Assembly (NCBI RefSeq): GCF_026210795.1
Contig: NC_089432.1
Location: 3,286,001 to 3,350,000, forward strand
From: Rhizophagus irregularis
Taxonomy: Eukaryota
Direction of reading: 5' to 3'
DNA length: 64,000 nucleotides
Made by a program: the position numbers and the translations under genes. The notes beneath the pieces are model-generated. The model did no database searches and was not told the origin of the DNA. It worked only from the letters and a program-made list of their open reading frames with translations. Shown one piece after another: positions 18,003 to 57,623 of the stretch (position 1 is the first letter of the stretch; each line of letters begins with the position of its first letter).

Positions 18003-19668
18003 ATGCAAGATACTGAAAATACAAATGAATGGGTTAATTGGATTGAAGAAGCAGTTGATAAAGAACATTTAAAATTTTATAAATATGAAGAATTTAATAA
18101 GATTCAATGTATTGGTACTGGAAGTTTTGGAAACGTATATCGTGCAAATTGGAAAAATTCAGAAAAACTATTTGCGTTAAAATCTTTTTTTAGTCTTAAT
18201 AACATCACCATGAAAGAAATAGTTCGTGAGGTATTTTAATGTATAATACATTTTTTTCTATCTATGAAATTTTATCTAATACCTATCTTTATTTCAAATA
18301 TTTTTATTTTTTATTCAGTTAAAAATTCAACGCCAAGTTGATTTTCATGATAACATTATTCGTTACTATGGAATAACAAAACTTGAGTCAGGTATTATTA
18401 ACATCACCTTGTATAAATATAATACGCAAAATTTTACAAAAGTTCATTTTAATTATTTCTTTTATTCATTAGAAAATCATAATAATTATGGATTAGTAAT
18501 GGAATACGCTGACGACGGTACTCTTCGAAGTTATTTAAAGGAAAATTTTAACAAACTTACTTGGGATGATAAATATAATATGGCATACCAGTTATCTTGT
18601 GCCGTATCATGCTTACATAACGAAAGAATAGTACATCGTGACTTGGTAATTTATTTATTATTTAATCATTAATAGTAATGTATTTTGTATTATTAATTTA
18701 AAAAAAATTGTTTATACATGTTTCTTTAATAGCACTCCTGTAATATACTAGTCCGTAATAACACAATCAAATTAGCAGATTTTGGATTATCTCAAAGAAT
18801 TGGAGCATCATCCAATTTTCAATCTAAATTATTTGGTGTGGTTCCTTATGTCGATCCAAAAAGCTTTAGTAGACGAAAAAATAATAATAATCAATCAACA
18901 CAAATGTACTTATTAAATGAAAAAAGTGATATTTATAGTATAGGCGTATTATTTTGGGAAATATCTAGTGGTCAACCTCCTTTTTATGTTGAGGATGAAC
19001 ATTATGATGTTGGTTTAGTTGTGGAAATTTCACAAGGTCTTAGAGAAATTGTTGTTCCTGACACTCCTGAAGAATATGTTAAAATTTATACTAGTGAGTA
19101 AAATTTAAAAATTTAAATTCTACATTTTTATAATTTAAAATATTATTTTAATTAAATCTTAAATTACATTTATTTCTTAGAATGTTGGGATGGGGAACCA
19201 GATAATCGTCCAACTATATATCAAGTAGTTGATTGGTTAAATGCAATAATTACAAAATCAGATGTAATAATAGAAAATCATCAAATGTCAAATGAACAAG
19301 AACTTAATGAGACTTCTTTAAGTACTAATAATTCAGAATTACAAGGTCAACTTATTCAAAATTTTGATAAAATGATTATTAAAGAAATTGGTCCTATGGC
19401 AATATCAAGTAAACAAGAAAATCATTCAACTGAAAAAGATTTTAACATTATGGTTGATGATAATTGGTCATATGTGATGGGTATAACACCATCAACAGCT
19501 ACGCAAGTGGCTAGCCCAATATCTCCCGTCAGTGTGATCAATCCTAATTATTCCTATCCTATACAAGACGAAGAAGAAGAAGGTGAATGGTTAACTGAAG
19601 ATGAACAAGAGGAGACTCCCGTCAGTGTGATCAATACTAATTATTCCCATCCTATACAGGACGAATAA
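18003..19668 (+). CDS. TKL-type protein kinase whose C-terminus is copied from the SP-RING gene
   Basis: Exons 18003-18230, 18319-18391, 18473-18645, 18733-19093 and 19181-19668 splice in frame. Motifs: GTGSFG, ALK, HRDLH, DFG, KSDIYS. Confidence 0.85.
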
Positions 19669-19870
19669 GAAGAAGGTGAATGGTTAACTGAAGATGAACA
19701 AGAGGAGATAGTTTTAGACTCGTCAAGCGCTGATATAAAAAAAGAAGGATTTTAATTGCTTAAAAGTAATATTATTTTTTTTTCGGTATGGCTATAATTA
19801 ACAAGAAAAAGAATAAAATTTAATATCATGAGATCTTAATTAATTAATTGCCTCAAATTTTATTATATTC
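19460..19870 (+). repeat. Duplicated copy of the SP-RING gene 3' end and 3' UTR (source ~5522-5949)
   Basis: NWSYVMGITPS...ATQVASPISPVSV.NPNYS.PIQDEEEEGEWLTEDEQEE is shared; DNA identity continues through GGATTTTAATTGCTTAAAAGTAATAT to GCCTCAAATTTTATTATATTC. Confidence 0.95.
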
Positions 19871-22800: not shown

Positions 22801-25499
22801 AGTTCATCATATAACTTTTATTATTCAAACGAATGGCGCAGTAAAATTAATAAACTGGACGTTTTATAAAGGAAGATTTATAATTACTTTAGCTTATACT
22901 CTACTTTCGCTAAAATTTGACCAAAGTTATATTATTCTTAATTTAAGATTACGCGTAACTATAAATAATTTTTCCATTTTCCATTTTCGATTTTTTTTTC
23001 TGTCACTTTCAAGAAATCTTGAGGGAAGAACTATTACATTCATGTTTACTCATTGTTATTGACATTTTTAATAGAACTTTTATTATTTCGAAACAACCAT
23101 TTTATGAGGCTTTTCCATATATTTCAATTAATTTTTCATGAGTAATAAATAAATTAATCAAATGTGTATTTGGTGATATTAATTATAAACAATTATTTAA
23201 TATTTTCGAATATTCTGTATTGAAAAAAAAATCATTTTCATTTTCAACTCTAAAGTACTTCTAAAGTGTAATATTATATTCTGTCCTGAATGTCGAATTT
23301 TGATTAGGTAATATTAAACCTGAAAATTCATTATTTAATTGTCTAAGGAAAGTTAAAATATACTGTAAGTACTATAATTCTCAAAAAAAAAAAAAAAATT
23401 TGGGAGTAATAAAATTTGTAACGTCAGAAAGATGATGATTTATTTATACAATAGAATTAAAAATTTGTCTTTATAATTTTATAGTGAATAAGATGTTAAT
23501 GATAATAATTAAGAGAAGCTAATTTACCAAAAACTTCAAATCTTTCTTTACTAAATTTAATTATATAAGTAGTCGATTGAAATAATAAAACTACTTTTAA
23601 ATATTTTAATAATCTTTTATATCTGCAGTTTTTTTGTACTATAAGTAATTTTTTCTATTTTGGTATTTATAAGGAATAATAATAATTGTATAAGGAATAA
23701 AAATGATGGTTAGATCATTTACTTACATACTGTATTTCACAATATTGAGTCCATATTACCATTAAATGGGAAAGAAAAATGTTAATAAAAATGCTAACGA
23801 ATAACGATAATGTATATTATTCCTTTAAACAAAAATGGAGTGATTAAAAATTTAATAATTTTCATTTGATTTATTATTATATTTTCATATGGAGATTAGC
23901 TATCAAATTATTTGGATGAAGACATACTATCATGAATCATGTTGTAACATTCTATAAACTTTACACATCAATAAATTTTACGCATGGTCAATATAATAAT
24001 GATCATTAAATTTATTTATATAATATAATAATAGTGTTGACATATCAGACAACAACAAGATGAACTTCAAGTTTATAATTGTAAACCTGTTAATTCTAAA
24101 GTGCAGATTATCCTTAAGTTACAACCCATATATATAAAAGTTGAAACAAATGAAATTGTGTTTGGGAATTATTAAATAAGTAATATAAAAAAGTAGAATA
24201 CCTAAAACTCGAGTTAAGGAATTAATTGAATAGATGGGATGTATACAGTGAAATTTGATATAATGGAACCATCCATTCCATTAGTAAATTTGTCAAAAAT
24301 CCATTATATCAAGAATCCTTGTTGTATTAAAGGTAAATTAATTATAGACTCTAATTCTGATATATCAAGATTTTACTTATCAGTATATCAAATTTTATTG
24401 TGTACAACACAACAAATTTTTAATGCAATTAAGTAATTTCTCAATAATGTAATACTTATTATACATACCTTAAAAATGAAGGAGATTTAAATAATAATTA
24501 TTTTGGAAAAGCCACAACATAGTATTTATCTTAGTTCTGTTTTAAAGATAAAAATGTTATTGCTTTAACAGAAATAAGTGAGGTTTTATACAATCACTAC
24601 AAAGACTACAAAAGATATAATTGTTGATACAAAGTTACAAATTGAAATTTTGCAAAACCACTGGTAGTTCATTAGCAGGAAAACTCTTTGAAATGTTGGT
24701 TCATGATATGATATATAAAGGTTAAGTAGTTGCACCATTCTTGAAGTTGAAAATTTTGAGTCTGTTATTAGTGCTATCTATTATGCCTTGTAATAACATT
24801 AATTATTAATATTATATAACAATAGTAGAAATACATAAGGCATTTGATGATGTTCTAAACATTATTAACAGACTTAAATTTTGGTATGGATATATGAAAT
24901 TCTTTACTTATGGCACCACTAAATATGGAAAGTTGCATTGATAGTATGCTTTTTTCTTAAAACTGAAAAGCTTGCAATACATTTTGATTGCCATAAATTG
25001 GCCAGAATTCAATATCAGCCATTGAAATGAGTATAAAAAATTTTATATTATTTATTTTACTTTTATACATCGGAATGGTTTTATATACTTATATTATCAT
25101 TTTGATAATTTATGTTTAATAATTGGAAAGCTAAAAAAAAGATTTATTTAAATTACAAACTAAGAAATTTGTAAAATAATTACTACTCTAGCCTTAGTGT
25201 TTAAATAATTCTACCAAAAAAAAAGAGAATACATATATGAATAAAATATAAAAAAAAGGAATTATTTAAATTACAAATTAAGAATCTTGTAAAATATTTT
25301 ACTAGTACTCTAGCCTTAGTGTTTAAATAAATCTAAACAACAATTTCTGTTAAATGCATAACATCAAATACACTTAAAAAAAACTATAAATTCTTATAAA
25401 AACACAAATAATTGGTTATTTTTTATCTGGTTTAATATCTAAATAAATAAATAAATAAAATTAATTCACATAAATAATTTGCAAAATTAATATACTATA

Positions 25500-28400
25500 T
25501 TACATACCTAATGACTTCAAATTAAATATACAATCATCCAAATCTTTACTTACTAGCATTTCGTTCACTTTTACATTAGCTTGTGAATCTTCACTTTCAA
25601 GAATTTCATTCACTTTTCCACTAGTAGATGATTGACTTAAATAATAAGCTTGTAAATTTCTACTTTCAAGAATTTCATTCAATTCTTTACTAGTAAAATC
25701 AAGTAAGCGACTTGTATAATATGCCTGTGAATGAGATATAGTAGCAAGGTTATTGTTATGCCCAATTGGTGCGTTTATAAATTCCATAATATTGTATTTT
25801 AATTCTTCATTAATATCTTCAACATTATATGGAGGAGCAATCCAATTTTCAATAATATTTAACACTTCTTTAGAAGATGGCCTTTTTAATGGATTTTCAT
25901 CCCAACACTTTTTCATCAATTCTACATAATGCTGTGGAGTATTTTCAATAATTTCAGGACGTTCACCTTCACAAATACTTAAACTAAGTTGAATATCATG
26001 TGCTTTATTATTATATGGTGGTATTCCAGATGTAAATTCCCACATAATCATAGAAAAACTATATATATCACTAGCTGGAGTATAGGAATTTCCTCTTAAA
26101 ATTTCAGGTGCCATAAATGGTATAACACCATAAATATCATATTTTTTCAAAAATGATTTTACAGGTTTACATAATCCTAAATCACTAATATAAATTTTAC
26201 CCTTATTATGATTTAAAATATTACCATCATGAAAATCACAATGAATAAGCTCTTGTTTATGTATATCATTAAGTCCAGAAATAATTTCAAATAACATATA
26301 TAATTTTTGATTCCAATCACTTTTGATTATTTTTGATAAGTTTCCTCTTAAATTACCTTCATTTGCATAATCCATTACCACCATATATTTCAAAGTATCT
26401 GGATCTTTTGTAAATCCATAAAAATAGATAATATAATATGAACTTAAACAACTTCCATGATATTTCCACTATAAATAATAATAATGATATATTAATATAA
26501 ATAAATATTAATTTAAATAAAAAAATAAATAATATATTATCATACTTCATTTAAAAATTCATTTAAATTTTCACTTAGATTATTATGAAGTTTAAGAATT
26601 ACTTCATTATCTTTATTATCATAAAACCAAGTAGCTTTGTATATTGTACCAAATCTTCCTTTATCAAGATACTCAACATTTTTAAATTTATCATAAGGAA
26701 TCCATTTTAATTTTTTTTCAAAAATAAAATTATCCATAATTGTATTTCCACTTTTTCCTAATCTATAAATTTAAATAATCAAAATTATTATTAAAGTTTA
26801 TATTAAAATCACATTAAAATTTAATCAACATTTACCCTAAAATTTAAACAGAAATTTAATATAATGTATATCTTAGTTATATACAATAATAACCTATATT
26901 TTAAAACTTACCAACTAAAGTAACAAAAATTTATATGAAAAGATTCAATTAATAATTATTTATAAAGTATATAACAATAGAAATAACAAATAACTTACAA
27001 GCTGTATTATCAAATTTTTAAATAAAGAATTTAGTTAGTTTAAATTATATACAAATATTATATAAATAAGTAATAGTAGAACTAAATAAATAACTTACAC
27101 CCTATAAATATTATTAAATAATTTTTTAAATAAAGAATTAGTTAGTTTAAATTATATGTAAATATTGTATAAATAAGTAATAATAGAATTAAATAAATAA
27201 CTTACTTCCTATATTATTAAACAATAATTTTTTAAAAATAAAGAATTTATTAGTTAGTTTAAATTATATGTATATATTATATAAATAGTAATAATAGATT
27301 AAATAAATAACTTACTCCCTATTTTTTAAATAAAAAATTTAGTTAGATTGAATTATATGTAAATATTATAACAATAAGTAATAATAGATTAAATAAATAA
27401 CTTAAAACTTACAATCTATTTAAATAAATAATTTAGGTAGTTTAAATTATATGTAAGTATTATATAAATATATAGTAATAGAATTAAATAAATAACTTAT
27501 AGTCTACCAACTAAAAAAATTACAAAATGATTTTTTTGTAAATATTATATAAATAAGTAATAATACTATAGAATTAAATAAATAACTTATAACTTACAAT
27601 CTATTTAAATTAAGGATTTAGTTAGTTTAAATTATATGTAAATATTATATAAATAATTAATAATAGAATTAAATAAATAACTTATAGCCTACCACCTAAA
27701 AAAATTACAAAATAATTTTTTAAGTAAAGAATTCAGTTAGTTTAGTTTAAATTATGTGTAAATATTATATATATAAATAAGTGATAATACTGTAGAATTA
27801 AATAATTAACTTATAACTTACAATCTATTTAAATTAAGAATTTAGTTAGTTTAAATTATATGTAAATATTATATAAATAAATAATATTAGAATTAAATAA
27901 ACAATTTATAACTTACAAACTAAAGAAATTACAAAATAATTTTTTAAAAAAAGAATTTAATTAGTTTAAACAATATGTAAATATTATATAAATAAATCAT
28001 AATAGAATTGAATAAATAACTTATAACTTACTAACTATAATTTTTTAATTAATGTTTTAGTTAGTTAAAATTATATGTAAATATTATAATAGAATTAAAT
28101 AAGTAACTTACAATCTATTAAATAAAAGAAATTAGTTAGTTTAAATTATATACAAATATTATATAAATAAGTAATAATAGAATTAAATAAATAACTTACT
28201 TCCTATATTATTAAATAATTTTTTTTAAATAAAGAATTTAGTTAGTTTAAAATATATGCTAAATATTATTTAAATAAGTAATATTTAAATAAGTAATAAT
28301 AGATTAAATAAATAACTTATAACTTACCAACTAAAAGAAATTACAAAATAATTTTTTAAATAAAGAATTTAGTTAGCTTAAATTATATAAATATTATATA

Positions 28401-31400
28401 AGTAAGTAATAATAGAATTAAATAAATAACATACCATCTATAAAATAATTTTTGAATAAAGAATTTAGTTAATTCAAATTATATTAAATTATATAAATAA
28501 GTAATAAAATAACTTATAACTTACAATCTATTTAAATAAAGAATTTAGTAAGTTAAAATTATATGCAAATATTATATAAATGAGTAATACTAGATTTATG
28601 ACTTACGATCTATTTAATAAAGAATTCAGTTAGTTTAAATTATATATAAATAAGTAATAATAGATTAAATAATAACCTATAACTTACCAACTAAAGTAAA
28701 TTACAAAATAATTAATTTAATTTAATAGATTAAATTATATGTAAATATTATATAAATAAGTAAAAATAGAATTAAATAAAATAACTTTTAACTTACCAAC
28801 TAAAAGAGATCACAAAATAATATTTTTAAATAAAAAATTTAGTTAGTTTAAATTATATGTAAATATTATATAACTAAGTAATAATAAGGAAATAATAATT
28901 TTATGCAGGTGTGTTGCAACGCACCCCCTTTTTGGAAATTATTAAATAGTAAATTTGCTGATCATAACGTAATCATAGATGATTGACAAATTTACTATTT
29001 AAAAATTTCCAAAAAGGGGGGGTGCGTTCAAATTTTAAACCTTTAAATAAATAACTTATAACTTACGATCTATTTAAAAATAAAGAATTTAATTAGTTTA
29101 AATTATATGTAAATATTATATAAATAAGTAATAATAAGAATTAAATAAATAACTTACTCCCTATATTATTAAATAATTTTTTAAATAAAGAATTTAGTTA
29201 GTTTAAATTATATGTAAATATTATATAAATAAGTAACAATAGAATTATACTTACTCCCTATATTATTAAATAGTTTTTTAAATAAAGAATTTGGTTAGTT
29301 TAAATGATAGAATTAAATAAATAACCTATAACTTACCAACTAAAAGAATTACAAAATAATTTTTTAAATAAAGAAATTAATTAGTTTAAATTATATATAA
29401 ATATTGTATAAATAGAATTAAATAAATAACTTACCAACTATAAAATAATTTTTAAATAAAGAAATTAATTAGTTTAAATTATATATAGATATTGTATAAA
29501 TAGAATTAAATAAATAACTTACACTCTATATTATCTAATAATTTTTTAAATAAAGAATTTAGTTAGTTTAAATTCTATGTAAATATTATATATTATAATT
29601 AAATAAATAACTTATAACTTACCAACTAAGGAAATTACAAAATAATTTTTAAATAAAGAATTTAATTTATGTAAATATTATATAAATAAGTAATAATAGA
29701 ATTAAATACTAAATAATTTATAACTTACGATCTATTAAATAAATAAAAAAATTAGTTAGTTTAAATTATATGCAAATATTATATAAATAAATAATAATAG
29801 AATTAAATAAATAACTTACTCCCTATATTATTAAATAATTTTTTAAATAAAGAATTTAGTTAGTTTAAATTATACGTAAATATCATTTAAATAAGTAATA
29901 ATAGAATTAAATGAATAACCCACTCCCTATATTATTAAATAATTTTTTACATAAAGAATTTAGTTAGTTTTTAAATTATATGCAAATATTATATAAATAA
30001 GTAATAATAGAATTAAATAAATAACTTATAACTTACAATCTATTTAAATAAAGAATTAAGTTAGTTTAAATTATACATAAATATTATATAAATGTACTAA
30101 TAGAATTAAATAAATAACTTATAACTTACGTAAAGAATTTAATTAGTTCAAATTATATGTAAATATTGTATGAATAAGTAATAATAGAATTTAAATAAAT
30201 AACTTATAACTTACCAACTAAAAAAAATTACAAAATAATTTTTTGGATAAAGAATTTAATTAGTTTAAATTATATGTAAAAATTGTATAAATAAGTAATA
30301 ATTAAATAAATATCTTATAATTTACCAACTAAAAGAAATAACAATATAATTTTTTTAAGTAAAGAATTTAGTTAGTTTAAATTATATGCAAATATTATAT
30401 AAATAAGTAATAATAGAATTAATAATGAAATAACTTACTCCCTATATTATTAAATAATTTTTTGAATAAAGAATTTAGTTAGTTTAAATTATAAGCAACA
30501 ATAAAATTAAATAAATAACTTACTCCCTATATTATTAAATAATTTTTTAAATAAAGAATTTAGTTAGTTTAAATTATATAAATATTAAATAAATATGCAA
30601 TAATAGAATTAATAAATAACTTACTCCCTATTATTAAATAATTTTCAAATAAAGAATTTAGTTAGTTTAAATTATATGTAAATATTATAACAATAAGTAA
30701 TAATAGATTAATAGAATTAAATAAATAGCTTATAACTCACCAACTAAAAGAAATTACAAAATAATGTTTTAAATAAATAATTTAGTTATTTTAAATTGTA
30801 TGTAAATATTATACAAATAAGTAATAATAGAATTAAATAAATAACTTATAACTTACCAACTAAAAGAAATTACAAAATAATTTTTTAAATAAAAAATTTT
30901 GTTAGCTTAAATTATATGTAAATATTATATAAATAAGTAATAATAGAATTAAATAAATAACTTACTTCCTATATTATTTAATAATATTTTACATAAAGAA
31001 TATAATTAGTTTAAATTATATGTAAATATTATAACAATAAGTAATAGTAGAATTAAATGAATAACTTATAACCTACCAACTAAAAGAAATTACAAAATAG
31101 TTTTTTTAAATGAAGAATTTAATTAGTTAAAATTATATGTAAATATCAAATAAATAAGTGATATATAAATAAGTAATAATAGAATTAAATAAATAACTTA
31201 TAACTTACTATCTATTTAAAAAAAAATTTAGTTAGTTGAAATTATATGTAAATATTATATAATTAAGTAATAATAGAGTTAAATAAATAACCTACCCCCT
31301 ACATTATTAAATAATTTTTCAAATAAAAAATTTAGTTTAAATTATATGTAAATATTATATAAATAAATAACTTATGACTTACAATCTATTTAAGTAAAGA

Positions 31401-34400
31401 ATTTAGTTAGGTTAAATTATATGTAAATATTAAATAAATAAGTGATATATAAATAAGTAACAATAGAATTAAATAAATAAATAACTTACGATCTATTTAA
31501 TTAAGAATTTAATGTTTTATAAATAAGTAATAATAGAATTAAATAAATAACTTACTCCCTGTATTTTTAATAATTTTTTAAATAAAGAATTTAGTTAGTT
31601 TAAATTATAAGCAACAGCAACAATAAATTAAATAAATAACTTACTCCCTATATTATTAAGTAATTTTTTAAATGAAGAATTTAGTTAGTTTAAATTATAT
31701 GTAAATATGTAATAATAGAATTAATAAATAACTTACTCCCTATATTATTAAATAATTTTTTAAATAAAGAATTTAGTTAGATTAAATTATATGTAAGTAT
31801 TTTATAAATAAATAATAATAGAATTAAATAAATAACTTATAGCCTACCGACTAAAAAAATTACAAAATAATTTTTTAAACAGAGAATTTACTTAGTTTAA
31901 ATTATATGCAAATTTTATACAAATAAGTAATAATAGAATTAAATAAATAACTTATAACTTACAATCTATTTAAAAAAGAATTTAGTAGTTAGTTGAAATT
32001 ATATGTAAATATTATATAATTAAGTAATAATAGAGTTAAATAAATAACCTACCCCCTACATTATTAAATAATTTTTCAAGTAAAAAATTTAGTTTAAATT
32101 ATATGTAAATATTATATAATAAATAACTTATGACTTACAATCTATTTAAGTAAAGAATTTAATTAGGTTAAATTATATGTAAATATTAAATAAATAAGTG
32201 ATATATAAATAAGTAATAATAGAATTAAATAAATAAATAACTTACGATCTACTATTTAATAAAGAATTTAATTAGTCTAAATTATATGTAAATGTTATAT
32301 AAATAAGTAATAATAGAATTAAATAAATAACTTACTCCCTATATTTTTAATAATTTTTTAAATAAAGAATTTAGTTTAAATTATAAATAACAGCAACAAT
32401 AAAATTAAATAAATAACTTACTCCCTATATTATTAAGTAATTTATTAAATGAAGAATTTACTTAGTTTAAATTATATGCAAATTTTATACAAATAAGTAA
32501 TAATAGAATTAAATAAAAAAACTTATAACTTACCAACTAAAAAAATTACAAAATAATATTTTAAAATGAATTTAATTAGTTTAAATTATTTTCAAATATC
32601 ATATAAATAAGTAATAATATAATTGAATAAATAACTTATAACTTATGATCTATTTAAATAAAGAACTTAGTTTAAATTATATGTAAATATTAGGCCACAC
32701 AAATTCGAATTTTCGGTTCACTTCACCCGGCCGGGTCACTTTTTCAAATTTCAATAAAAAAAAGTTTATATATAAAAAATTTATCATGTGATCAGAACGT
32801 AATTTTATTGGCGGGTAAGTTTATCACGCGGCTGAGAACTTCTAGAGCGAAAATAAATTCCTCCCTTTTAAAAGTCAACCAATCAAATGTCACGATTTTA
32901 TATATAAACTTTTTTTACTAATAAACAATAAACCCTGGGTCCCCGGGTCGATTTTAAATTTCAATGTTACGTGAACTGAAAAATTGAATTTGTGTGGCCT
33001 TATATAAATAAGTAATAATAGAATTAAATAAATAACTTACTCCCTATGTTAGTAAATAATTTTTAAATAAAGAATTTAGTTAGTTTAATTATGTAAATAT
33101 TAAATAAATAAGTAATAATAGAAATTAATTATTTCTTACGATCTATTTAAATAAAGAATTTGGCTAGTTTAAATTATATGTAATTATATAAATAATTAAA
33201 TATAGAATTAAATAAATAGTAACTTACTCTCTATATTATTAAATAATTTTTAAATAAAGAATTTGGTCAGTTTAAATTATATATAAATATTATATAAATA
33301 GGTAAACAAGTAATAATAGAGTTAAGTAAGTGGCTTACTCCCTATATTATTAAATAATTTTTTAAATATATAAAGAAATTAGTTAGTTTAAATTATATGT
33401 AAATATTATAACAATAAGTAATAATAGAATTAAATAAATAACTTATAACTTACAATCTATTTAAAATTTAGTTAGTTTAAATTATATGTAAATATTATAT
33501 AAATAAAGTAATAACAGAATTAGATAAATAACTTATAACTTACAAACTAAAAAAAAATTACAAAATAATTTTTTAAATAAAGAATTTAGTTAGTTTAAAT
33601 TATATGTAAAATATTATATAAATAAGTAATAATAGAATTAAATAAATACTTCCTATATTATTAAATAATTTTTAAAATAAAGAATTTAGTTAGTTTAAAA
33701 TATATATAAATATTATATAAATAAGTAATAATAGAATTAAATAACTTACTTCCTATATTATTAAATAATTTTTTAAATAAAGAATTTAGTTAGTTTAAAA
33801 TATATGTAAATATATATTATAACAATAAGTACTGGTAATAGAATTAAATAAATAACTATAACTTACCAACTAAAAGAAATTACAAAATAATTTTTTAAAT
33901 AAAGAATTTTGTTAGCTTAAATTATATAAATAATAGAAATATATACATCTATAACTTACACCCTAGTATTATTATTAATTAATTATTAGTTAAATATAAA
34001 TATAATACAAAAGTATTTACTGTAATTAAATGTATCACTTACAATCTAGTTATTTAAATTAAGAATATAATTAGTTGAATTATTTAAAATATTAAAATAT
34101 TAACAAACAGATATAATATTGTAACTTACCATCTGTAATACAATTAATTATTAAATAGTTAATTAAATAAAGAATTCAGTTATTATTATATTATGTAAAA
34201 TAAATAAAACAAAGTAAAGAATTAAAGATTTTTTAAATAACCAATAACTTACCGACTATAGTATTATTATATTAATCATTAAATAAATTATTTAGTTACA
34301 TGAAATATAAAAAAATGATAAGTAATTCCATTATTATTCAATTATAAGATAACTTATTAACTTACGAGCTAAATTATTTAATATTATTTTTGTATATATA

Positions 34401-34725
34401 GTTAGTTTAATTTGTTATTATGTAAGGTATAAATAATTATAGTTAGTATTTAAATGTATTTACAAATAAAAATTTAATATTTTAGCATGTTTAATATACC
34501 TTTAGATTCCTTGATACTTCTTTCTTCAAATTCTTCAGGGTCACTTTCTTTGAATTCCTCAGAGCTACTTCCTTTAAATTCTTCAGTACTACTTCCTTTA
34601 AATTCAATATTACCAGAAACTAGTTTTATTATATTATAAATTTGTTTAAAAATATTAGAATTCTAATTGTATTAAATGTTTATATTATACATATGATTAT
34701 TACCTTTATCATTACTGAGAACCAT
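25500..34725 (-). CDS. TKL-type protein kinase with a micro-exon-encoded N-terminal region (predicted gene model)
   Basis: Exon 1 34725-34704 (MVLSNDK+G); exon 2 34619-34500 (120 nt, phase 1); ~69 3-nt micro-exons; then kinase exons 26762(or 26757)-26546 and 26468-25500 with KSGNTIMDNFI, DKGRFG, ILK, HCDFHDGN, DLG, MAPE. The kinase part is secure; the link to the 5' exons is inferred. Confidence 0.7.
28888..29041. mobile_element. Short palindromic insertion (MITE-like) inside an array intron
   Basis: Inverted arms AACGCACCCCCTTTTTGGAAATT...TAAATAGTAAATTTG / CAAATTTACTATTTA...AATTTCCAAAAAGGGGGGGTGCGTT interrupt a repeat unit. TSD is not clean. Confidence 0.7.
32693..32999. mobile_element. PIF/Harbinger-type MITE inside an array intron
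   Basis: TIR GGCCACACAAATTC...GAATTTGTGTGGCC; TTA TSD. Removing it restores the unit sequence AAATATTATATAAAT. Confidence 0.9.
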
Positions 34726-37144
34726 TACTATATAATTATATTAAAATTCTCTCTGACTGGAAAATGTAATATAATTTTTTTTATTATTATTAAATGCTTT
34801 TATTATATGGTATATATGGTAATAATATTATTGCAAAATGCATGCGCAAAAGCATTGATTATAAGTACAAACTTTGCACATTTGGAATAAATTGTCCATA
34901 TGATTGATGATCTTGTCAATTTTGTAGAACAATGTAGATCTATATCACCAATGTCACGTCTGCTGACATAGCATGTAGATCATGTATAGCTGAAATGTTT
35001 TATTTATTATGTTTATTTTATTAATTGTAGTTATTATATTAGACATATTTATTGTTAATTATTTTTGCTATATCAAAATATGTAATATATTTATTATAAA
35101 TAAAGCTCTGCTTTATTACAGATCCAGAGAGTGTTCGTAAGTGTTCATTCTTGGTTTGTATATAATCCCTTATTCATGTCTGATTTGTTGCACTCTATTC
35201 ACGTCTACTTGGATTGGTTTGTATAGTTTTTCTTGATATTAAATCCTTCTGCTTACCATTTGCAAATTATTGTTTACCCTGTAAGCCCTAAAGAACTGAC
35301 TTCAGTTAACGATAACTGGAATATATGTCAATCATGAATCATCAAGCCTCATTGTTGCAAAGCAAAAATCATAAAGCAAAGAAATTTCTTAACACATAAT
35401 ATAACTTAGAGTAGCAAAGATTTTGAATATCACTTTTTTAATTTTTTTGTTAAAACTAACTTGGAAATTATCAGTTATGTGACTTATATCCAAAGTGGTG
35501 ATAATACAGAGTAAACCTTCACATCATTACTATAATTTTTTAAAATTATATAATATCATGTTTCATAAAGCATTCAGAAAATGCACAATTTCATTTCACA
35601 AAATGCATCATTTGCTAATTTGACTATGGGAATTTACACTAAATTTATATTGATTTGATCACAGAATTTACATAATTTGAGTAATACAATGAATTTACTG
35701 CTTAAATTACATTTTAAATAATAATACTTATTAAATTATTAAATAATTATTTTGAATTACAGTTATCCGTAAAATTGTAGATTATTAATGAGTGCGAAGT
35801 AAAGGAGATATAAGTATTTTAGCCACGGTTTACTATATTGTGTCAGGATTTAGAATGTTGTGATGATTCAAATTAAGACAATTAATTGATTAGGTACTTC
35901 AAAAATTGGTTGATCAATTAATTTAATCTCAAATAGATTTAGTTAGATTGACTTCATAAAAAATACTGTAAAAAAAAATTTTGTTTATTGTTTTACAATT
36001 TTTTTTAAAAAAAATAATTGGCTATAGGAATGTTGAAAATGTTGAAGAATCTTTATCTGGGTCATCAAAGCTTGCATCTTCCACTAAAATTTCTAAAAGG
36101 TTATCATTCTTGGAATCAACAGCTAGTAGTCAACAACAGAAAATGAAAATTTTTTTCGTTAAAAGAAATTCAAAAATATATTAATATGTTCACTTGCTGC
36201 TAATAAGGTAATATTCTAATTACATAATTGAAACGTTCTCATATAGTAAACTAATGAATTTTTAATTTAGAAAAAATAAATTAATATTTTTTTTTTTGTT
36301 ATCTTACAATATTTAAGCAAATGTCATGTGATAGTATGCTAAAAATTATAAATGTGGATTTTAAGGGCGGAACTATGACGAGTTAAAACTGTTAAAATAG
36401 ATATAAGTAAATAAAATAAATAAACGCAAAATCGATCAATTAACCATTTAATCTTATTTATATGAATATCAATCGATTATACTTCTAGTCCTATAATCGA
36501 TAATGATACCAGCATGATGTTTGGCGCTTATAAACATTATACGCTGAATGTTTACGCTTATCAGTATTTTTAAATTTAGTAAGAATTTTAAACCAAAAAT
36601 TAGATATATGAGGAGTTTTTATCATAAAATTGTTTTGTTTGTCCAGAGCAATAAATTGTTTATTTAACACGTGGCAAGATTGAATAAGTACTTTTTCTAT
36701 CGAGATCATTGTGTTGAAAGAACATCGCACTCATTAGCGTTACTCAGCAGTTCAAACTACTGAGTAATCGTCACTTTTTTAAGGGAAAATTTTACTAAAC
36801 TTTTTATATTCCATCTCTTTTCCGTAAAAGGCCTATATTCCGGAATTAATAACCTTATATTACGGAATTTATCGAATTATTTACATTTTCCGTGAATGGA
36901 TCCACGAAAGACTCATTTTTACGGAGTTTTACAGAAATTTTTATAGGGATAAAGAAAGGTGTCAGAGATTTTTCTCAAAAAAATAATTAATTTTCTCAAT
37001 AACTATTATATTTTTTTATTTTCTTTAAAAGGTATAATAGTTTTAAATGTTTAATTAGCATTCATTATAATTAATTTAATATTATAAATATTATAAATTT
37101 AATATTACATAATAAATAATTTAATTTACATAGTAAATTGTTAC

Positions 37145-39163
37145 TAATTCTATTATTTTATAAGTTCTTCTAATCTATTTTGATCTTTTCGATATTCTTG
37201 TTTAGCTGATTTTTCATACCAGTAAATTGCTGTATATAGATCTTTTTAACTCCGTCTCCTTTTTCATATTTCAAAGCAAGATTATATTGTGCTGCCTTTT
37301 ATCCTAAATTTGCAGCTTCCCGATACAATTAAGCTGCCTTTTGCTTATCAATATTAATTCCAATTCCACTACCATAACAATATCCGTATGTAGTGATTCC
37401 TTTTAAATACCCTTATTCAGCTGATCTTTTACATAATTCAAAAGCTTTTCGGTAATCTTTATTATCACCTCCTCTAATATATAAAAGACCAAGATTATGC
37501 ATAGCCATCAAATGTCCATTATTTGCAGCTTTTTCATAAAAATACACAGCCATTTTTAAAATTTTATTAACAATTTTACCAGTTTCATAAAACCAACCTA
37601 AATTAAATTGTCCCATTGCACAATCTTTTTTAGCTACTTTTTTATAATGTAATAATGCCTGCATTTCATTCTTTGGAGTTCCAATTCCAGATTGATATCA
37701 TTTTCCAACAAAATATTGTACTAATATTTGATTCTCTTCTGATACACTCTTAAATAAATTAAAAGCTTTTTCTTCATCTTTTATTGTTCCAATTCCATAA
37801 TAATTAAAATATCCAAGTAAGAAGATTAATTCTAAAGTATTTTGATTATTTGATAACCAATTATAAATTTGAGTGTTGAAATAATCACCTTGTTCTACTA
37901 CACCCCAATCTTTTCCTTTATTTTCTTCCTTAAAAATTAGATCAACTTATTCATTAATCATAATATTAAAATTTTTTTCAAATGGAATATTTTGATTAAT
38001 TTGTTCTTTTGTGATTATCCAATCTCTTTCACTTGTATTAATATTATTGTAATTAGAATTTTGAAACTTTGAAATAAATAACATTTTTAATCTATTAACA
38101 ACTTCATGTACAGTTGGTCGTTTACTCGGTTCATTATTCCAACATTCTAATAATTAAAGAAATGTATTTGATTAAAATGAAGTGACTTAATAAGTAAAAC
38201 AAACAATGCGTTAAATCATATTTACCAGTATACAGAGTGGAATAATCGCTAGGAGTATCAGGAATAATTTCTTCTCTTCGGCCTTGTGAAATGTTATAGA
38301 TTAAACCAATCTTATTTATCTCTTCATGAAATGGTGGTTTCCCACTTGATATTTCCCAAAGTAAAACGCCAATACTATCGATCCTTTTTGATAATCCAAA
38401 ATCTGCCAGTTTGATGGAGTTCCGATGAACCAATACATTACAGGAATGCTATTATAATGAATAAATAAAATTTAATTAATGTAATTTATAAAATATTTTA
38501 TTAATTTATTAAAAAAAAATTACCAAGTCTCGGTGAACAATTTCTGGAACAAGCTAATTGATAAGTAAATTGAATTTATATTCCAACTAAGTCTCTTGAA
38601 GTTTTTGTTTAAATAGTCACGAAGAGATCCACCATCGGCGTATTCCATTATCAATAAATAATTTTTTGTTTGTTCAATTTTATTTTCTAATGAAAAGAAT
38701 AATCACTTTATTTAAAAAAAAATTTATAAGTAAATTTATATTTAGTTATTGATATTTAAATATTTACAAATACCTGATTCAAGTTTTGTAATTCCACAAA
38801 AGCGATTAATATTATCATTAAAATCTATTTCTCGTTAAAGCTTAAACTAAAAATAAAGAAATTAAAAACCTAATAAATATAAAAATAGTACACAAAGTAA
38901 TTATTTAATATATAATCGAATTTTTTTTTAATTACCTCATTAATAATTTCTTTTAAAGTAATACTGTTAAAATTAAAAAAAGATTTCAATGCAAAATAAT
39001 AATGATCATGATTTTTCCAATTTGCACAAAAAACCTTTCCAAAAGATCCAGTTCCAATCTCTTGAATATTTTTAAAATTTCAAATTCATAATATTTAATG
39101 TTTTCTATTGATAGCATCTTCAATCCAATAAATCGATTTATCAATATTTTCATTATTTTGCAT
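37145..39163 (-). pseudogene. Kinase-SEL1 repeat pseudogene
   Basis: Starts MQNNENID like the 45868 and 53836 genes. Frameshift in exon 1, deletion joining DFGLSKRID directly to SIGVLLWE, and several stops/frameshifts in the SEL1 repeats. Confidence 0.85.
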
Positions 39164-39883
39164 TTTTGTTATTATTGTTTATTATTAACAGAAATTGTCA
39201 ATGGAGTAAAAACAATAAAAATTTTTTTATGGAAAAAGTTCTAATTTATAGATTTATGTAAATCATACATATAGACTTGTATACGCCTTTTACGGAAAAG
39301 AGATGGAATATAAAAACAGATCGACTTTTTTACGGGGTATATAAAATACCTTTATTGCTTTTTTAACTAAATATAGCTTATTAACAAATCTTTAGTTTAT
39401 TTATTAAAAAGATTTTTTATATCACGATAATTTCCCAAAATTCCAACATTTTTTAATTTGACTATTTTGTTAGCAGTTAAATTTATAGGACCGTTTGAAT
39501 TAATTTAGGTAGAACTTTTGAGCCAAGAAGTTGTCCAAAGTTGTCCAAAGAATTTTTATATCTAAATTACCAAATTAATTTTTTTTTTTATCAGATAAAC
39601 TCATCTACCTAAAGGCGAAAATAAAAAAAAAACAAAGTAAAAATAAAATTAATCTGGATCACTTGTAATATAAAATCCAAAATATCTTTACCAAAATATA
39701 TATTGTGTAGTAAACCTTGTGCTCTCGTAAAAAGGCTATTATAAATTTATCCATTTTTTTGTAATACCTAATTTTTTTTTTAATAAAGATTATTTCTATT
39801 ATCCTATATAATATTTGTTTCTTTAAAAACTGTTTGTAATAAGAACACTCCAAAAAATAAATGTTCTTCCTTTTTCATGATAC

Positions 39884-40592: not shown

Positions 40593-40964
40593 TAGGGATG
40601 GCAACGGTCACGGTCATTAACCGGTTATGACCAGTCATGACCGTGACCGATATTGGTCATTGACTGACCAGTCTGACCGACCGGTTAACCGACTGTTTGA
40701 CCAACTGTTTAACCGATCCTGAAAATGTTTGCGAAATGTAATTTAATAAAAAAATGTTTTGCAAACGTTTTTTTAATTATTTTAATAGAAAACGTTGCGA
40801 AAATGTTTTTATTAAGTATTTCAAACGTTTTTTATTAAATTACGTTTCGCAAACATTTTCAGGATCGGTTAAACGGTCGGTCAAACGGTCGGTCGGTCGG
40901 TCAAAAGTTCTTGACCGGTTATGACCGACCGATGACCGACCATGACCGACCGTTGCCATCCCTA
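40593..40964. mobile_element. hAT-type MITE
   Basis: TIR TAGGGATGGCAACGGTC...GACCGTTGCCATCCCTA; 8-bp TSD ATAACAAT; subterminal GACCG repeats. Confidence 0.9.
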
Positions 40965-41144
40965 ATAACAATACCAAAACGGTTGAAAACCACTTTTAAT
41001 TAAATAATCGACTATCACTATTTAATTTAAAACTATTTAATTTTTTTCATCTCATCTTTAAAAGAACTATTAATAGTTTAAATATTTCATTATATAATAT
41101 ATTTATAACCTTATTAATAAATTTTAAGATATTCATTTATTTTT

Positions 41145-41668: not shown

Positions 41669-44360
41669 AACTGTAGTGCATCTTTATTAAGAATTATGTC
41701 TATTGACTTCCTAAATTACAAGATACGTAGAGCCAACATGTTTATACACCATGTCAACCCTATAACAGAGTATTCCGAACTATACTACTAAAATGCATTA
41801 CAGAAAAATAATAAAATAAATACAATACCTGATAAAAATAAAATATACTAAAACTAACAGACTATTCAATTTTTGAAACCTAACTATTGAATTCTAATTT
41901 TTAAAGTGTAGGATTAAAAGTGAAATGCGTAATAGCGTCCAGGTCTGCCCTGTGCAGCTTCGAAAAGATGAGTCCCAACGGTCTCACACCCAAACAGTTT
42001 ATTCCACCAAATCCCCCTTATACCTACAAAAAATAAAAGTTAGTATTCTAAACTACATTGAATGAGTCGGAATAAAATATATTTTTGTTGTTAAATTTTG
42101 TTATCAGAATCTTTTTAACGTGAATCACGTGACTTTGATTAAAAATATAATTCATTTCTCCTCATAAATCTTTTCCTTCGCTCTTCACTTCTTGTTGTTC
42201 TTCTTCTTCGTCTTTTTCCTTCCGCTGGTCTTCTTTGATGGTGATGTCTTCAGTTCTAGTTTTTCTTCTTCTGCTGCTTCTTCCTCGTTTTCTTCGTCTT
42301 CTTCTTTGTATTGGATCGTGGAAGTGGATGGAATCAGCTCTTGTTGCCTTTTTTCTAAGTAAAATGCCTTAAAAGCCTTGTTCCTCTCCTCTTCATCCTC
42401 TATGTAACTCCATTTACTCGGCGATTCTAATATTGGTCTTTTTTCGCCGATCTTCTTTTCATCTTGGTAGCGATTTTCGTTCTCCAATCTTTGTTTAAAA
42501 TTATCATTTAGGGTAGTATATTCTTGAAATATTTTCGATTTTTCCACTAAACTTATAATCTTTTGTTCTAAACGGAAAAAATTGTTTTTTTCCAAGGCCC
42601 AATTCTTTGCTTCGTCCCAGTTTTTTATCTCATGCTCCTTGCGTAGTTCGTCTACGGCCTCGACGTTAATTTTTTCCCATTCCATTTCGTTGGACGTTTG
42701 ATTGAAGATATCTTTCACTTCCTTCAATTTATCCACCAAACTTCCATCGTGGGTTGATTCTTGATACTGAACATATTTGATTTTGTTCAATGTTCTGTAA
42801 TCTTTTATGATTTCAACCACTTCTTCAGGCGCTACGTTGTCTTTCTTCAGTTGTTACCCTTTTTCTCCGAAGTGTCATTGTGATCTGGAGTATTCTCTTC
42901 TCCTACTCTCCAATTTTTGATCATCTCAACAACTTCATTTTCGTCTGGCGTCTTGCTTATCCTTAGTGGCTTATCCGCTTTTGATGGATGTAGTAAGCTT
43001 TCTTTTCGCGAAGCGAAGTTCCCTAATTCTCTGTAAATTCTCTCCGGTGGTGTTATAGGTGTCTTCGGTTCACTGGCCAGCCGTAGAGGTAATCTTATTT
43101 TATTATCTGTAGCTATGACCTTATCCTGATCTATCTTCTCTTGCGGTTTCTTCATCCTTGTCTTATCATCACCATCTTTGTATATCGTCTTTTTGTTTCT
43201 CACTAGCCAAACTCTATTGATATCTCCTTCTGTGCATGAATCCTCCACTGCTTCTTCCATTTCTTTGAGGTTCTTGAAATATCCAATCACTTTCCAATTT
43301 TTCGTGATTTTGATAATTTTGATGAACGCCGTCTTGGAAGTTTGTTGCAGTTTCTTCGTAAAATCGTATGTATTTCCCTTCTTTATGGATTCCATTTCCT
43401 CGTTAGTTAGGTCTCTCACAGTCTGCCATTGATCCCGCTCCTGTCGTCCTTTCAAGCCTAGTTTCGCGTCGTACCATCTGATGAAATTTTTGCTAATACA
43501 AATACTGAAATATCCATTCAAGAACGTTTTTTCGAAATTTTTGTTCAATGCGATTTTTGCCTTCACGGTTTTGTATTTATATTGACCTCGAATTTGCAGT
43601 CTATATACCGTTCCTATCTTCATCAGATTTGTTCTTACGTCATCCTCGCTCCAGTATTTTGGTATATCGTAGAAAATATGTCACGTGCCTCCTTGGCCTG
43701 CTGATCATTACTGGTATTTTCGGGTAAAACTGGTATCTCTAGGATTTCTTCCCGTTTTCTCCTATTTGATGTCGATCTGCCTTTATTGGATTTCTTCGGC
43801 CGATTGATTTCTTTGTTGATATCAGTCTTAACCTTTTTTAGCTCTGATCTCGTTTTCTCTACTTCTTGTGAAATTTTCCTTATTTGCTCATTTTTCTGCG
43901 ATATTATTCGTTCCTGTGTTTTCTCCAACTTGCCTTTCTTATCCATCATGTGATCTTTCCTCCGCAGTTCTTCTCGCAGCTTTGAATTTTCCCATGAGAG
44001 TCTTTTTATTTCGTCTGTATAGACATTGAAAGACATTGCTGAACACTTTAAAACTATTTCTTGTATAGTCTCTTTTCTGCGTACAGTGTCGTTCCGTATT
44101 GACTCCAGGAAGTTCTGTTCTGTTTTGCTGAGGTTAAAGTCTCTTCGTGCTCTTTCTTGGCCTTTTACCGTTATTCTTGAGTCTACACTAGAAAAATTTT
44201 TTGTTTCTTTTAGAAACCTATATCTATATTCTGTAAATTTGTATGCTGACTCCATTTTTGAGGTTTTTTATTTGGGTTTTATTAATAAAAATACTCGTAA
44301 AAGACGTTTTTCTTTCCGCTAAAAATTTGGGCAGAATGATCGTCAGAAAGAGTTCTTGTC
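41637..44360 (-). mobile_element. Poly(A)-tailed non-LTR retroposon with an ORF1-like coding region and no reverse transcriptase
   Basis: 17-bp TSD GTATGTTTTGATATATA at 41620-36 and 44361-77; T25 tract at 41637-61 is the minus-strand poly(A); contains ORFs 44255-43635, 43623-42847 and 42820-42185. Confidence 0.85.
42185..44255 (-). pseudogene. ORF1/Gag-like nucleic-acid-binding protein (coiled coil + RRM-like), split by two frameshifts
   Basis: Coiled-coil first ORF. A frame switch near 43675 gives RDIF/FYDIPKYWSEDDVRTNLMKIGTVYRLQIR (RRM-like); a second switch lies near 42855; basic C-terminal tail. Confidence 0.55.
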
Positions 44361-45330: not shown

Positions 45331-45867
45331 TTACTAATTATTTCTAAAATATCTTCTTTTATTTGCAATTTCTTAAAATTTAAAATTATATTGTCACAAT
45401 AAAATAATGTTATCTAAAATAAAATATTTTTTGTACAAATTATATATTTTCCGGTAAACTATGTAAAGGATTATCTTCTAGATTAAAAGTTCAACAGTCG
45501 AATACGAGTGATTTTTCCTAAAATTCCGATTAGTTGAATATCTTTTAAATTATATATTGTAAATTACTTAATTAATTCATTCATTTACTAAATTTATCTT
45601 TATTTTCCAAATATTTTGGTAAACTGTTGCAAAAAGAAATTTTTTTGCTGATCTGCTTGTGTAATAATACTGCTGAGGGGGAACCTTCCGGCTTCCGTAT
45701 GAAACTAATGGATTTCCTGCATAATTTGTTACACAAAATATTAATTTATACGAATCAATAAATAGAAAATTATTTTTTTTTTCTTTTTTTGACTTTTTAC
45801 CGTTAACATTTTTTATTGATTTTAACCACATCTTATACTAAAATTAAAAAATAATAACAAAAAAAAA

Positions 45868-48145
45868 ATGCAAAATAACGAAAATATTGATGAATGGATT
45901 AATTGGATTGAAGAATCTATTAATAAAAAACATATCAAATATTATGAATTTGAAAATTTTAAAAATATTCAAGAAATTGGTTCCGGTACATTCGGAAAAG
46001 TTTTTCGTACAAATTGGAAAAATTTTGATCATTATTTAACGTTGAAATCTTTTTTTAATCTTAACAATATTATTTTAAAAGAAATTATTAATGAGGTAAT
46101 AATTTATAAAAAATTCGGTGTATTTTTTTTTTATTTTAAATTTTTTTTTTCCTAATTATTGTTCGTTTATCATTTAAAAGATCGAACTTCAACGAAATTT
46201 AGATTTTCATAATAATATTATTCGCTTTTATGGAATTACAAAACATGAATCAAATACTGGTAAGAATATCATAAAAGAATTTCATAATGATTGTAACAAT
46301 CAAAAGTTGAATGAAATAATTTTTTTTTTTTTATTATGCAATAATTAATAATAATTATTTTTATTAGAAAATATATTAAATCCAACAAAAGATTATTTGT
46401 TAGTAATGGAATACGCCGACAGTGGTACGCTTCGTGACTATCTAAAGAATAATTTCCATAGACTTACTTGGGATAACAAATACAATTTGGCATCCCAATT
46501 GGCTTGTTCTGTACTATGTTTACATGAAAAAGGAATTGTTCACCGGGACTTGGTATTTTATTTTTCAATATTAATAATATATATTGATTTTAACAATTAT
46601 AATTAATTCATTCTTAATTATTATAATAGCATTCTTGTAACGTGTTAGTTCATCAGGATTCCATTAAGTTGGCGGACTTTGGATTATCAAAAAGGATTGA
46701 TGAAACGTCTAAATCACAATCAAAATTACTTGGAATGATTCCCTATATTGATCCAAAAATATTAATGGATAACAATTTAAAATCAAATGAGAAAAGTGAT
46801 ATATACAGTATCGGAGTTTTGTTATGGGAAATATCGAGTGGGAAACCACCATTCCATGAAGAGAAATATGATTTTAATTTAATGTATAAAATTTCACAGG
46901 GTCGAAGGGAAATAATTGTTCCAAATACTCCTAATGATTATTCCAATCTTTATACTGGTAAATATACGTACTGTTTGTTTTATTTATTGAAATCATTATT
47001 TAATCAAATACATTTCTGTACTAATTCTAGAATGTTGGAATAATGAACCAAGTAAACGACCAACCATACATGAGGTTGTTAATAGATTAAAAGTGTTTAT
47101 TTCAAATTCAAATAGTATGAAGCAGAATGATATATCTGATCAAAATAATTCTATACCAAATGAAAATACAACTCCAAATAGTAGAGATTCATTACATGAA
47201 GAATTATCTCAAATGATCCAAAATTTTAGTAATATAAATACAAATGAAATAGATGGGATGTTTACGAATGATCAAATTAAAAAAAATCTTTCATCTGAAA
47301 AAAATTTAAGCATTATAACTAATGAAATAGTTGATCTTATTTTTAAGGAGGTTAATAAAGGAATTGAAAAAGTAGAACAACATGTTCTTGATTATCTTAA
47401 TAATTATAAAATAAAATCAGAAGAGATTTATAATTGGTTATTATTAAATAATCAAAATAATACAGAATCCATATTTTTGTTTGGATATTTTAATTACTAT
47501 GGAATTGGAACAATTAAAGACAAAGAGAAAGCATTTAGTTTATTTATTAGTGCATCAGAATTGAATCATATATTGGCACAATATTTTGTTGGAATATGTT
47601 ATGAATTTGGAAATGGAGTTACAAAAAGTAAAAGGCTGAGATTTGAATATTATGAAAAAGTAGCTAATAAAGATTATGCTATGGGACAATTTATGTTAGG
47701 TGGATTTTATGAGAGTGTTAAAAATGATCTAAAAATGGCCGCATATTGGTATGAAAAAGCTACGAATAATGGACATTTGGCAGCCACGCATAATCTTGGC
47801 CTCTTATATAAAAATGGAGATGGTGTCGATAAAAATCTTAAAAAAGCTTTTGAATTATTTAAAAAATCGGCTGAAGGAGGAAATTCAAGTGGAATAACAA
47901 TGTTAGGAAGATGCTATTGTAGTGGGATTGGAGTTAGTATTGATGAACAAAAGGCAGCCGAATTATATAAAAAAGCAGCAAATTTGGGACGTATGATAGC
48001 TCAATATAATCTTGCTGTAATGTATGAAAAAGGAAATGGGGTTGAAAAGGATTTAGATGAAGCGATTTTTTGGTATAAACAATCTGCAAAACAAGGAGAT
48101 ATAGATGCTCAAAATAGATTGAAAGAACTTAAGAAAAAAAATTAG
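45868..48145 (+). CDS. TKL-type protein kinase with C-terminal SEL1-like repeats, apparently intact
   Basis: Exons 45868-46095, 46181-46259, 46368-46552, 46630-46957 and 47031-48145 splice in frame. Motifs GSGTFG, HRDLH, DFG and repeated AQYNLA.MY..G.GV.KD...A..WY..SA..G. Confidence 0.92.
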
Positions 48146-51825: not shown

Positions 51826-51954
51826 TGTTAAGAAAAGTGTGTATTTTAGAGAGAAAAAATTTGTTAACCTATTTGAAAATAAAATTAACCTTATATATTA
51901 ATTTTATGATGATCCATGTATCAACTGCGTGTGTAACAGTTTTCTTGTAGCTGA

Positions 51955-56944: not shown

Positions 56945-57623
56945 TAGGGTTGGATCGGTCCTAGCAAAGACCGGTCCTGCGTCGGTCTTGGGACCGGTCT
57001 TCACGGTCTTTGGTCCGAGATCTGAGGACCGGTCCGGACCGGGGACCGATCCCATATTATTAATATCCAATAAAAATGAGTCAATTTTTGTGCTCATCTA
57101 CTTCTAGGGCACGGTTTTTGCCAAAACCGATTGTCAGTTCAGTTTTTAACGTTTTCGCAATGTTTTTTATTAAAAAAAACGTGCGAAACTTTTTTTTCGT
57201 GAAATTATTAATAAAAAACGTAAAATAATTAAAAAAACGTATGAAAACGTTTTTTTTATTAAATTGCTTAATAAAAACATTGCAAAACGTAAATTACTTA
57301 ATAAAAATGTTTTCGCAACGTTGTTTGTTAAAATAATTAAAAACGTTTGCAAAAAACGTTTTTTTTTATGAACTTATTAATAAAAAACGTTTTCGCAACG
57401 TTTTCTATTAAAATAATTAAAAAACGTTGTGAAACGTTTTTTATTTGTTAAATTACATATTAAAAAACATTTCGCAACGTTCTTTAATGTTTTAGCATAA
57501 TTTAGAGGTCTAAAAATCATTTCTTTAAATTTAAATCGGTCCGGTCCTGGTCCGGTCCGGTCCAGGTTGAAAGACCGGTCTTTTTGGAACCGGACCGGAC
57601 TGGACTGGACTGATCCAACCCTA
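56945..57623. mobile_element. hAT-type MITE
   Basis: TIR TAGGGTTGGATC...GATCCAACCCTA; 8-bp TSD ATAAATAT; GGACCGG subterminal repeats. Confidence 0.9.

Follow-up and report, generated by a model that had tools for sequence, protein, structure and literature searches.

A tandem array of codon-sized exons upstream of a non-RD kinase domain in Rhizophagus irregularis

Introduction

Can a segment of a protein be spliced together one codon at a time? The question is raised by a kinase gene on the minus strand of a 64,000-nucleotide (nt) stretch of DNA from the mycorrhizal fungus Rhizophagus irregularis (contig NC_089432.1, positions 3,286,001 to 3,350,000; this whole stretch is hereafter the window, and positions are counted from its first letter). 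Upstream of the kinase domain lies a long series of intron-exon repeats with a candidate exon of three nucleotides in each. A preliminary description of the locus had taken these for genuine micro-exons and had proposed that their skipping produces a somatic library of sensor segments. We find that the architecture is real and apparently undescribed, being backed by selection, by conservation and by RNA evidence at the level of the gene family. With somewhat better than even confidence, we favour a reading in which the N-terminal linker of a non-RD kinase is spliced from 69 three-base exons and one single-base exon, an arrangement that would let its residues change quickly.

Results

Sixty-nine three-nucleotide exons precede an intact kinase

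Between exon 2 and the kinase exon (Table 1), the pattern [CT]AG-N(3)-GTA[AG]G has 63 matches, as compared to 0-1 for each of the other spacings from 0 to 12 nt, which bears out the claim of real micro-exons in tandem. Elsewhere in the window, the 3-nt pattern has three minus-strand matches and one plus-strand match. Looser donors gave 71 matches (GTAAGT in 56) and, once two chance matches without YAG were dropped, 69 YAG-NNN-GT units running from 34368 down to 26912, all of them phase 1-1 exons. The 71 introns have 41 distinct lengths, with an even spread over the frames (24/23/24), but the exon length is constant at 3 nt; a CTRAY branch-like motif is found 10-70 nt before the acceptor in 52 of them. 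The array burdens each transcript with ~7.7 kb and 71 introns.

In its translation, the main kinase exon (25500-26468, minus strand) shows 100% identity to an R. irregularis DAOM 197198 protein, and it matches PF07714 with 146 bits (curated cut-off 23.1). Homologues of this exon made up 1279 of 2001 candidates, and the named ones in the 120 listed were all from Rhizophagus. The catalytic loop reads HCD at 26249, with an uncharged C replacing R before the catalytic D (non-RD); HCD is also present in 127 of the 135 stored homologues that have the motif, and HRD in four other kinases of the window. The kinase gene is intact and of the non-RD type. The predicted protein has ~516 residues including the last exon, ~70 of them from the micro-exons, and an acidic N-terminus. 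In agreement with the preliminary description, the array segment is fused to an intact kinase and no signal peptide is apparent from the sequence (no predictor was run); the highest 19-residue hydropathy of the segment is 0.41, and the spliced model contains neither an ectodomain nor a transmembrane helix.

Table 1. Features of the array gene (positions in the window; strand given where it applies).
Feature	Position	Strand	Remarks
Exon 1	34704..34725	-	22 nt, start codon, GT donor, ends in phase 1
Exon 2	34500..34619	-	120 nt, acidic E/S-rich, 24-nt repeat inside, GT donor, ends in phase 1
Array of 69 three-nucleotide exons	26912..34368	-	~100-bp intron-exon repeat units; three subfamilies: GGA-, TTG- and ATT-type
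1-nt exon (G)	26836..26836	-	TTTTAG-G-GTAAAT; moves phase 1 to phase 2
First kinase exon	26546..26762	-	phase-2 acceptor 26764-26763; second in-frame AG 26759-26758; internal Met
Main kinase exon	25508..26468	-	PF07714/PF00069, HCD non-RD loop
Last coding exon	25416..25438	-	agrees with the C-terminus of P0122-P0124
Six-unit block	31965..32424	-	duplicated at 31211-31647; nearest neighbours of six consecutive units lie, in order, in the other block
Dead unit	32643..32652	-	donor GT changed to AT; from subfamily comparison and intron-motif count
Dead unit	30125..30140	-	deletion covering the acceptor and most exon bases, donor kept; from intron-motif count
307-bp intronic insertion	32693..32999		~35-bp terminal inverted repeats, TTA on both sides
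Second intronic insertion	28905..29040		palindromic; ends approximate

The array is read in phase 1 through a single-nucleotide exon

Exons 1 and 2 both end in phase 1, as had been stated, and because they total 142 nt the array is read in phase 1. Full inclusion in this phase reproduced the stop-free peptide reported earlier. The conserved path then leads from the last 3-nt exon through the 1-nt exon to the acceptor at 26764-26763, and with the 1-nt exon the frame stays open from exon 1 via 70 micro-exons through the kinase. The preliminary description had instead joined the array to the kinase at 26757. This join is also in frame and two residues shorter, but the AG used there is created by a base specific to the array gene and is not the conserved acceptor. 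The paralogue models that read through introns have 'YR' (four models) or 'LE' (seven models) before FG, which suggests a phase-2 acceptor located five bases earlier and preceded by a 1-nt exon; in our reading, the 'SK' before FG in public models is compatible with a 1-nt exon that runs on into its donor.

Phase 2 gives six stops within the array. Phase 0, the L/G/I-rich reading adopted in seven public models, is ruled out by the 142 nt upstream and by the conserved 1-nt exon and phase-2 acceptor. Among the 148 stored proteins, seven are L/G/I/M-rich at the N-terminus (12-14 residues out of 15, kinase parts reaching at most 10), as would be expected from such arrays when read in phase 0. Finally, skipping of the last TTG exon makes a stop, which explains the conservation of this exon.

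Splice signals are maintained while units and exon bases change

At the DNA level the array is variable. It contains a six-unit duplication, which strict self-BLAST failed to reveal and which rests on nearest-neighbour pairs, as well as dead units; the 307-bp insertion is, we presume, similar to a miniature inverted-repeat transposable element (MITE-like). Paralogue segments read from RNA differ among themselves and from the array gene: the segment had been called W/Y/F/R/D/G-rich, and a W/R/D/G composition does hold for the array gene, but it is not shared by the paralogues.

Splice sites were compared within the three subfamilies (66 of 70 units classified, four left out), and the kinship of the units makes the resulting P values too small. 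The G's of the splice sites differ at 1/132 positions vs 81/407 for intronic G/C (P=4e-10), and their A/T at 0/132 vs 391/4758. Introns diverge by 8-20% per site, and a splice site has been lost in only 2 of 71 units, the units being counted independently through an intron-internal motif to avoid circularity (six exons gave no motif match). Since a neutral satellite changing at intron rates would be expected, by simple arithmetic, to lose nearly half its units, the splice signals of the array are under selection.

The exon bases behave differently from the splice sites. Between nearest-neighbour units, exon sites differ at 51/183 positions vs 388/4565 for intron sites, neighbours having been picked by intron likeness, which biases the count. 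A parsimony tree was computed for 62 of the 69 units, leaving aside seven divergent ones at the ends. It gives 20 and 15 changes for the exon bases contributing codon positions 1 and 2 and 9 for the base contributing position 3, as compared to a mean of 3.7 and a maximum of 12 in 58 intron columns. The excess of changes at amino-acid-changing bases suggests diversifying selection.

Paralogue mRNAs carry in-register triplets ahead of the kinase exon

PolyA reads were mapped at 85% likeness, and nearly all come from paralogues. The three raw runs (X21, X22 and X23) belong to one study with two samples, X21 and X23 sharing one sample; two further runs, X1 and X3, are RNA only by guess. At 26763 the polyA depth drops from 278-374 to 3-6, and loose read ends accumulate behind 26762 (275/464, 340/537 and 372/605 mapped reads). 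The loose-end table showed 24 of its 58 rows, 13 of which lie at the exon start, and the 8 distinct ones were read by hand. After removal of the kinase bases and one further base, 50 of 62 triplets in these rows fall within the 17-triplet repertoire of the array. Three rows were checked in all registers, with 23/26 triplets matching in the predicted register vs 19/51 in the other two. Five of the eight rows have CTT in second-last place, and five have TTG in last place. In all four runs, CTT, TTG, A closes the bulk consensus, as compared to CTT, TTG, G in the array; one extra base precedes the kinase exon in the paralogue reads. The proposal that the micro-exon units are spliced is therefore upheld in paralogue mRNA only, where the kinase exon is joined at the predicted acceptor and preceded by triplets in register. 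Exact contigs over the main kinase exon were found in X1 and X3; none crossed the junction.

Could the array be left unspliced in this copy? It would then be a satellite, either inside a single long intron or ahead of a kinase whose translation begins at the internal Met. Four public models of the array gene (P0001 and P0122-P0124) do begin at this Met or later, omitting everything upstream, and junction reads of the gene itself were not seen. However, 69 of 71 units are intact despite the divergence of the introns, the frame is open from the first exon to the kinase, and the ends of paralogue mRNAs match those of the array. We regard an unspliced array as very improbable.

A loose end at 27017-27072 (X1, X3) led to a contig from another locus with the repeat unit of the array and an apparent 6-nt exon between AG and GT; such arrays may thus include 6-nt exons.

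The anatomy is conserved in relatives of the array gene

A soil-metagenome scan provided six loci among the matches listed. Two of these have the full anatomy (L001 and L003), one has it in part (L002), two represent a cysteine-rich sister type and one lacks upstream DNA. In both L001 and L003, 3-nt units ending in TTG are followed by a 1-nt exon (A in L001, T in L003) and then by a phase-2 acceptor; the in-frame acceptor of L003 comes a few bases later. For these two loci, identity to the array gene is 72-80% in the repeats and 60-67% in the kinases. L002 shows one 3-nt unit and a phase-2 acceptor, with no clear 1-nt exon; at 1-150 of this locus, units lie inverted upstream of the last units, through an inversion or an assembly chimera. 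The sister kinases (L004, L005, P0274, P0279 and P0296) share the SGN...WIPY lead-in and the kinase domain with the array gene, and the array occupies the place of their CxxC...CxxC segment.

The N-terminus encoded by exon 1 is also present in the paralogue models P0009, P0011, P0016 and P0017. Exon 2 and the N-terminus, used as queries against proteins, returned no full phase-1 segment (in one search, 17 of 150 matches were read), and short phase-1-like stretches occurred only in P0017 and P0057 among the proteins read. No relative was found among viral contigs, and the repeat pattern had no match in prokaryote genomes. Two models, P0050 and P0063, start with MGQ, one of them with cysteines, a start that the array gene does not have and that, we assume, resembles myristoylation/palmitoylation motifs. 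P0149-P0152 and similar models are long proteins that match the N-terminal profile of the kinase 6-11 times over (as read in P0149).

These comparisons bear on a second alternative, that slippage or unequal crossover multiplied a neutral or selfish unit in a tolerant linker, where only frame-keeping 3-nt exons survive, splice sites are retained merely to avoid mis-splicing and the peptide has no role. Exon bases show no purifying selection, paralogue segments share little, dead units and two insertions are tolerated, an internal Met is present, and some paralogue models have few or zero residues in place of the segment. Yet relatives whose kinases are 60-67% identical have kept the anatomy despite a cost of ~7.7 kb and 71 introns per transcript, and changes are more frequent at the exon positions that alter the amino acid than at the mostly silent one, although this is suggestive only. 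Neutral expansion thus strikes us as distinctly unlikely.

Inclusion is probably mostly ordered rather than combinatorial

The preliminary description held that any skipping keeps the frame. This is true of the 3-nt exons and not of the 1-nt exon, and 4 of the 69 single skips create a stop. It had also considered the lack of adjacent stop-forming joins as merely suggestive, rightly so: shuffling gives a mean of 1.7 and P(0)=0.126, and on this value stop avoidance was rejected as proof of design. Stop-forming single skips were not depleted either, the internal ones numbering 3 vs 1.7 expected.

In the one reasonably clean group of paralogue reads, behind 26758 (26, 23 and 46 reads), 30 letters are identical in X21 and X23 and changed at one letter in X22, with agreements of 0.85, 0.73 and 0.77; in a second group, letters are nearly equal in X1 and X23, which come from different studies. 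We simulated skipping on the array, assuming one gene per read group and our own reading of 'agreement'. Agreement of 0.73-0.85 corresponds to an inclusion of roughly 80-95% for each exon, and consensuses as alike as those observed require at least about 85-90%; at 50% inclusion, agreement is 0.65 and consensuses are unstable. Under this model, inclusion near the 3' end of the array would be mostly ordered, with an upper bound on skipping of 5-15% per exon. The remaining disagreement may reflect mixed paralogues or skipping, which are indistinguishable here.

What then of the somatic combinatorial library, in which each transcript carries a different subset of micro-exons and one gene gives rise to a large, selected sensor repertoire? 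Every 3-nt skip keeps the frame and alters a junction codon, and 19 residues are reachable; the agreement leaves room for 5-15% skipping, and already at 90% inclusion 19,848 of 20,000 simulated transcripts differ. The schistosome micro-exon genes (MEGs) are described as working likewise (PMC4350168). On the other side, the near-identity of the 30-letter consensus in three runs (one difference, two runs from one sample) was not reproduced at 50% skipping, stop-forming skips are not depleted, and stops would occur in 32% of transcripts at 90% inclusion and in 74% at 50% random skipping, the sequence being stop-free only at full inclusion; the disagreement among reads may moreover simply be mixed paralogues. 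The library is thus not borne out, and we consider it rather unlikely.

A model for rapid change of the kinase linker

We return to the reading in which the linker is spliced from codon-sized exons. The mechanism would begin with a ~100-bp intron-exon unit multiplied singly and in blocks, the splice sites being held nearly invariant, the exon bases left free to vary and any 3-nt unit able to be gained or lost without a frameshift, steps that can be followed in the DNA. Transcripts would enter the kinase exon at the predicted acceptor after in-register triplets and one extra base, as they do in paralogues only, and short-intron splicing would include the array exons mostly in order. Most diversity would then arise in DNA, among paralogues and strains, through unequal recombination of near-identical introns; skipping of a minority of exons would probably add to it. 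In the weakest step, the variable segment may set the binding or the trigger of the kinase, most plausibly in non-self or defence signalling. A non-RD loop is tied to microbial recognition in plant receptor kinases (PMC3411088), and XA21, FLS2 and EFR have a cysteine before the catalytic aspartate in place of arginine, as does the array kinase. In contrast to these receptor kinases, the array kinase has no ectodomain, signal peptide or transmembrane helix; carried over to a fungal cytosolic kinase, the link to microbial recognition would be a lead, and the non-RD loop may weakly support a sensing role.

Several observations weigh against this reading. At 26759, 1089 of 1094 reads carry the paralogue base, and no junction read belongs to the array gene itself. 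The paralogue triplets are called micro-exons from register and end match only, and the loose ends span at most 10 exons, the middles of the arrays being outside their reach. One row (X1, 26763) matches the repertoire in only 4 of 10 triplets, and one consensus row (X22, 26755; agreement 0.66) would put a stop at the junction. The raw RNA evidence comes down to one study with two samples, X1 being merely guessed to be RNA. Exon G/C bases differ at 19/75 positions vs 81/407 for intron G/C, an excess that is not significant (P=0.28), and both chimeric units and the use of an intron-based tree confound the amino-acid-changing excess. Lastly, translation of the kinase could begin at the internal Met, leaving out the segment, and any role of the segment in binding or function would be hypothetical.

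A bolder version can be formulated, in which a Glomeromycota family of intracellular non-RD kinases, missed by annotation, has a recognition segment with one codon per exon. Recombination of the repeats would exchange single residues in the genome, 5-15% skipping per exon would render almost all transcripts distinct, and a coenocytic symbiont would thereby possess an antibody-like, diversified sensor repertoire. We consider this version doubtful.

Comparison with known systems

MEGs are fast-evolving genes with small symmetric exons and frame-keeping variation by a few residues (PMC4350168), with exon sizes of 3-81 bp (PMC10526429). Runs of very small symmetric exons are shared with the array gene, where they are limited to an N-terminal segment of ~70 of ~516 residues. 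However, MEG products are secreted or membrane-anchored and have a signal peptide, as opposed to an intracellular kinase with no signal peptide or hydrophobic stretch seen, and MEGs are reported to be restricted to flatworms (platyhelminths), whereas the array gene is in a fungus, its kinase being identical to the R. irregularis protein. The array also differs in that its exons all have the length of one codon and belong to tandem repeat units, and in that a 1-nt exon follows. Differential splicing produces a pool of isoforms from MEGs; for the array, the agreement of 0.73-0.85 in a paralogue read group could stem from skipping or from mixed paralogues.

Isolated cases indicate that exons this small can be spliced, fungi included: a single-nucleotide exon in Arabidopsis (PMC4674806), a 3-bp exon in Drosophila homothorax (PMC7392893) and a 20-nt microexon in Trichoderma Xlr2 (PMC11121469). 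Each of these cases involves a single exon, as compared to 70 consecutive ones in the array gene. The study of fungal microexons is described as limited (PMC11121469), and the passages covered of the geneML preprint do not mention microexons. In Glomeromycota, the kinase domain of the array gene is shared with an expansion of PF07714 (tyrosine-kinase-like) proteins, the sister type having CxxC...CxxC where the array stands; Glomeromycotina kinase-related expansions are described as without known function (PMC8778642). The literature searched, which held few subscription journals and no supplements, contained no account of arrays of this kind in Glomeromycota.

With 70 exons of 1-3 nt in a row, the array would take splicing to an extreme and would offer an experiment of nature on how the spliceosome deals with codon-sized exons flanked by short introns. 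The array further illustrates residue-by-residue protein evolution through recombination in introns, and it provides a testable candidate for recognition diversity in multinucleate symbionts. In practical terms, the N-termini of a large kinase family in a model mycorrhizal fungus are mis-annotated, either truncated or read in the wrong phase.

Other features of the window

Tandem kinase-Sel1 genes lie at 45826-48145, 53779-56511 and 61258-63317 (+) and at 37100-39180 (-). Sel1 was confirmed in the first, three of these genes have HRD, and the minus-strand copy is apparently broken by stops and deletions. A BTB/BACK-TLDc gene is located at 50344-51897 (-). At 42185-44267 (-), three overlapping long open reading frames with a strong strand skew and no Pfam match are possibly the relic of a mobile element. 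Short inverted-repeat elements, which we take to be MITE-like, are found at 40593-40965, 57221-57567 and 57740-58124. Finally, the 3' end of a gene near 4876-5781 and its downstream flank (5519-5949, +) are copied to 19457-19870 (+), at the end of a kinase gene (18280-19668), and a 93-bp part is doubled within this copy.

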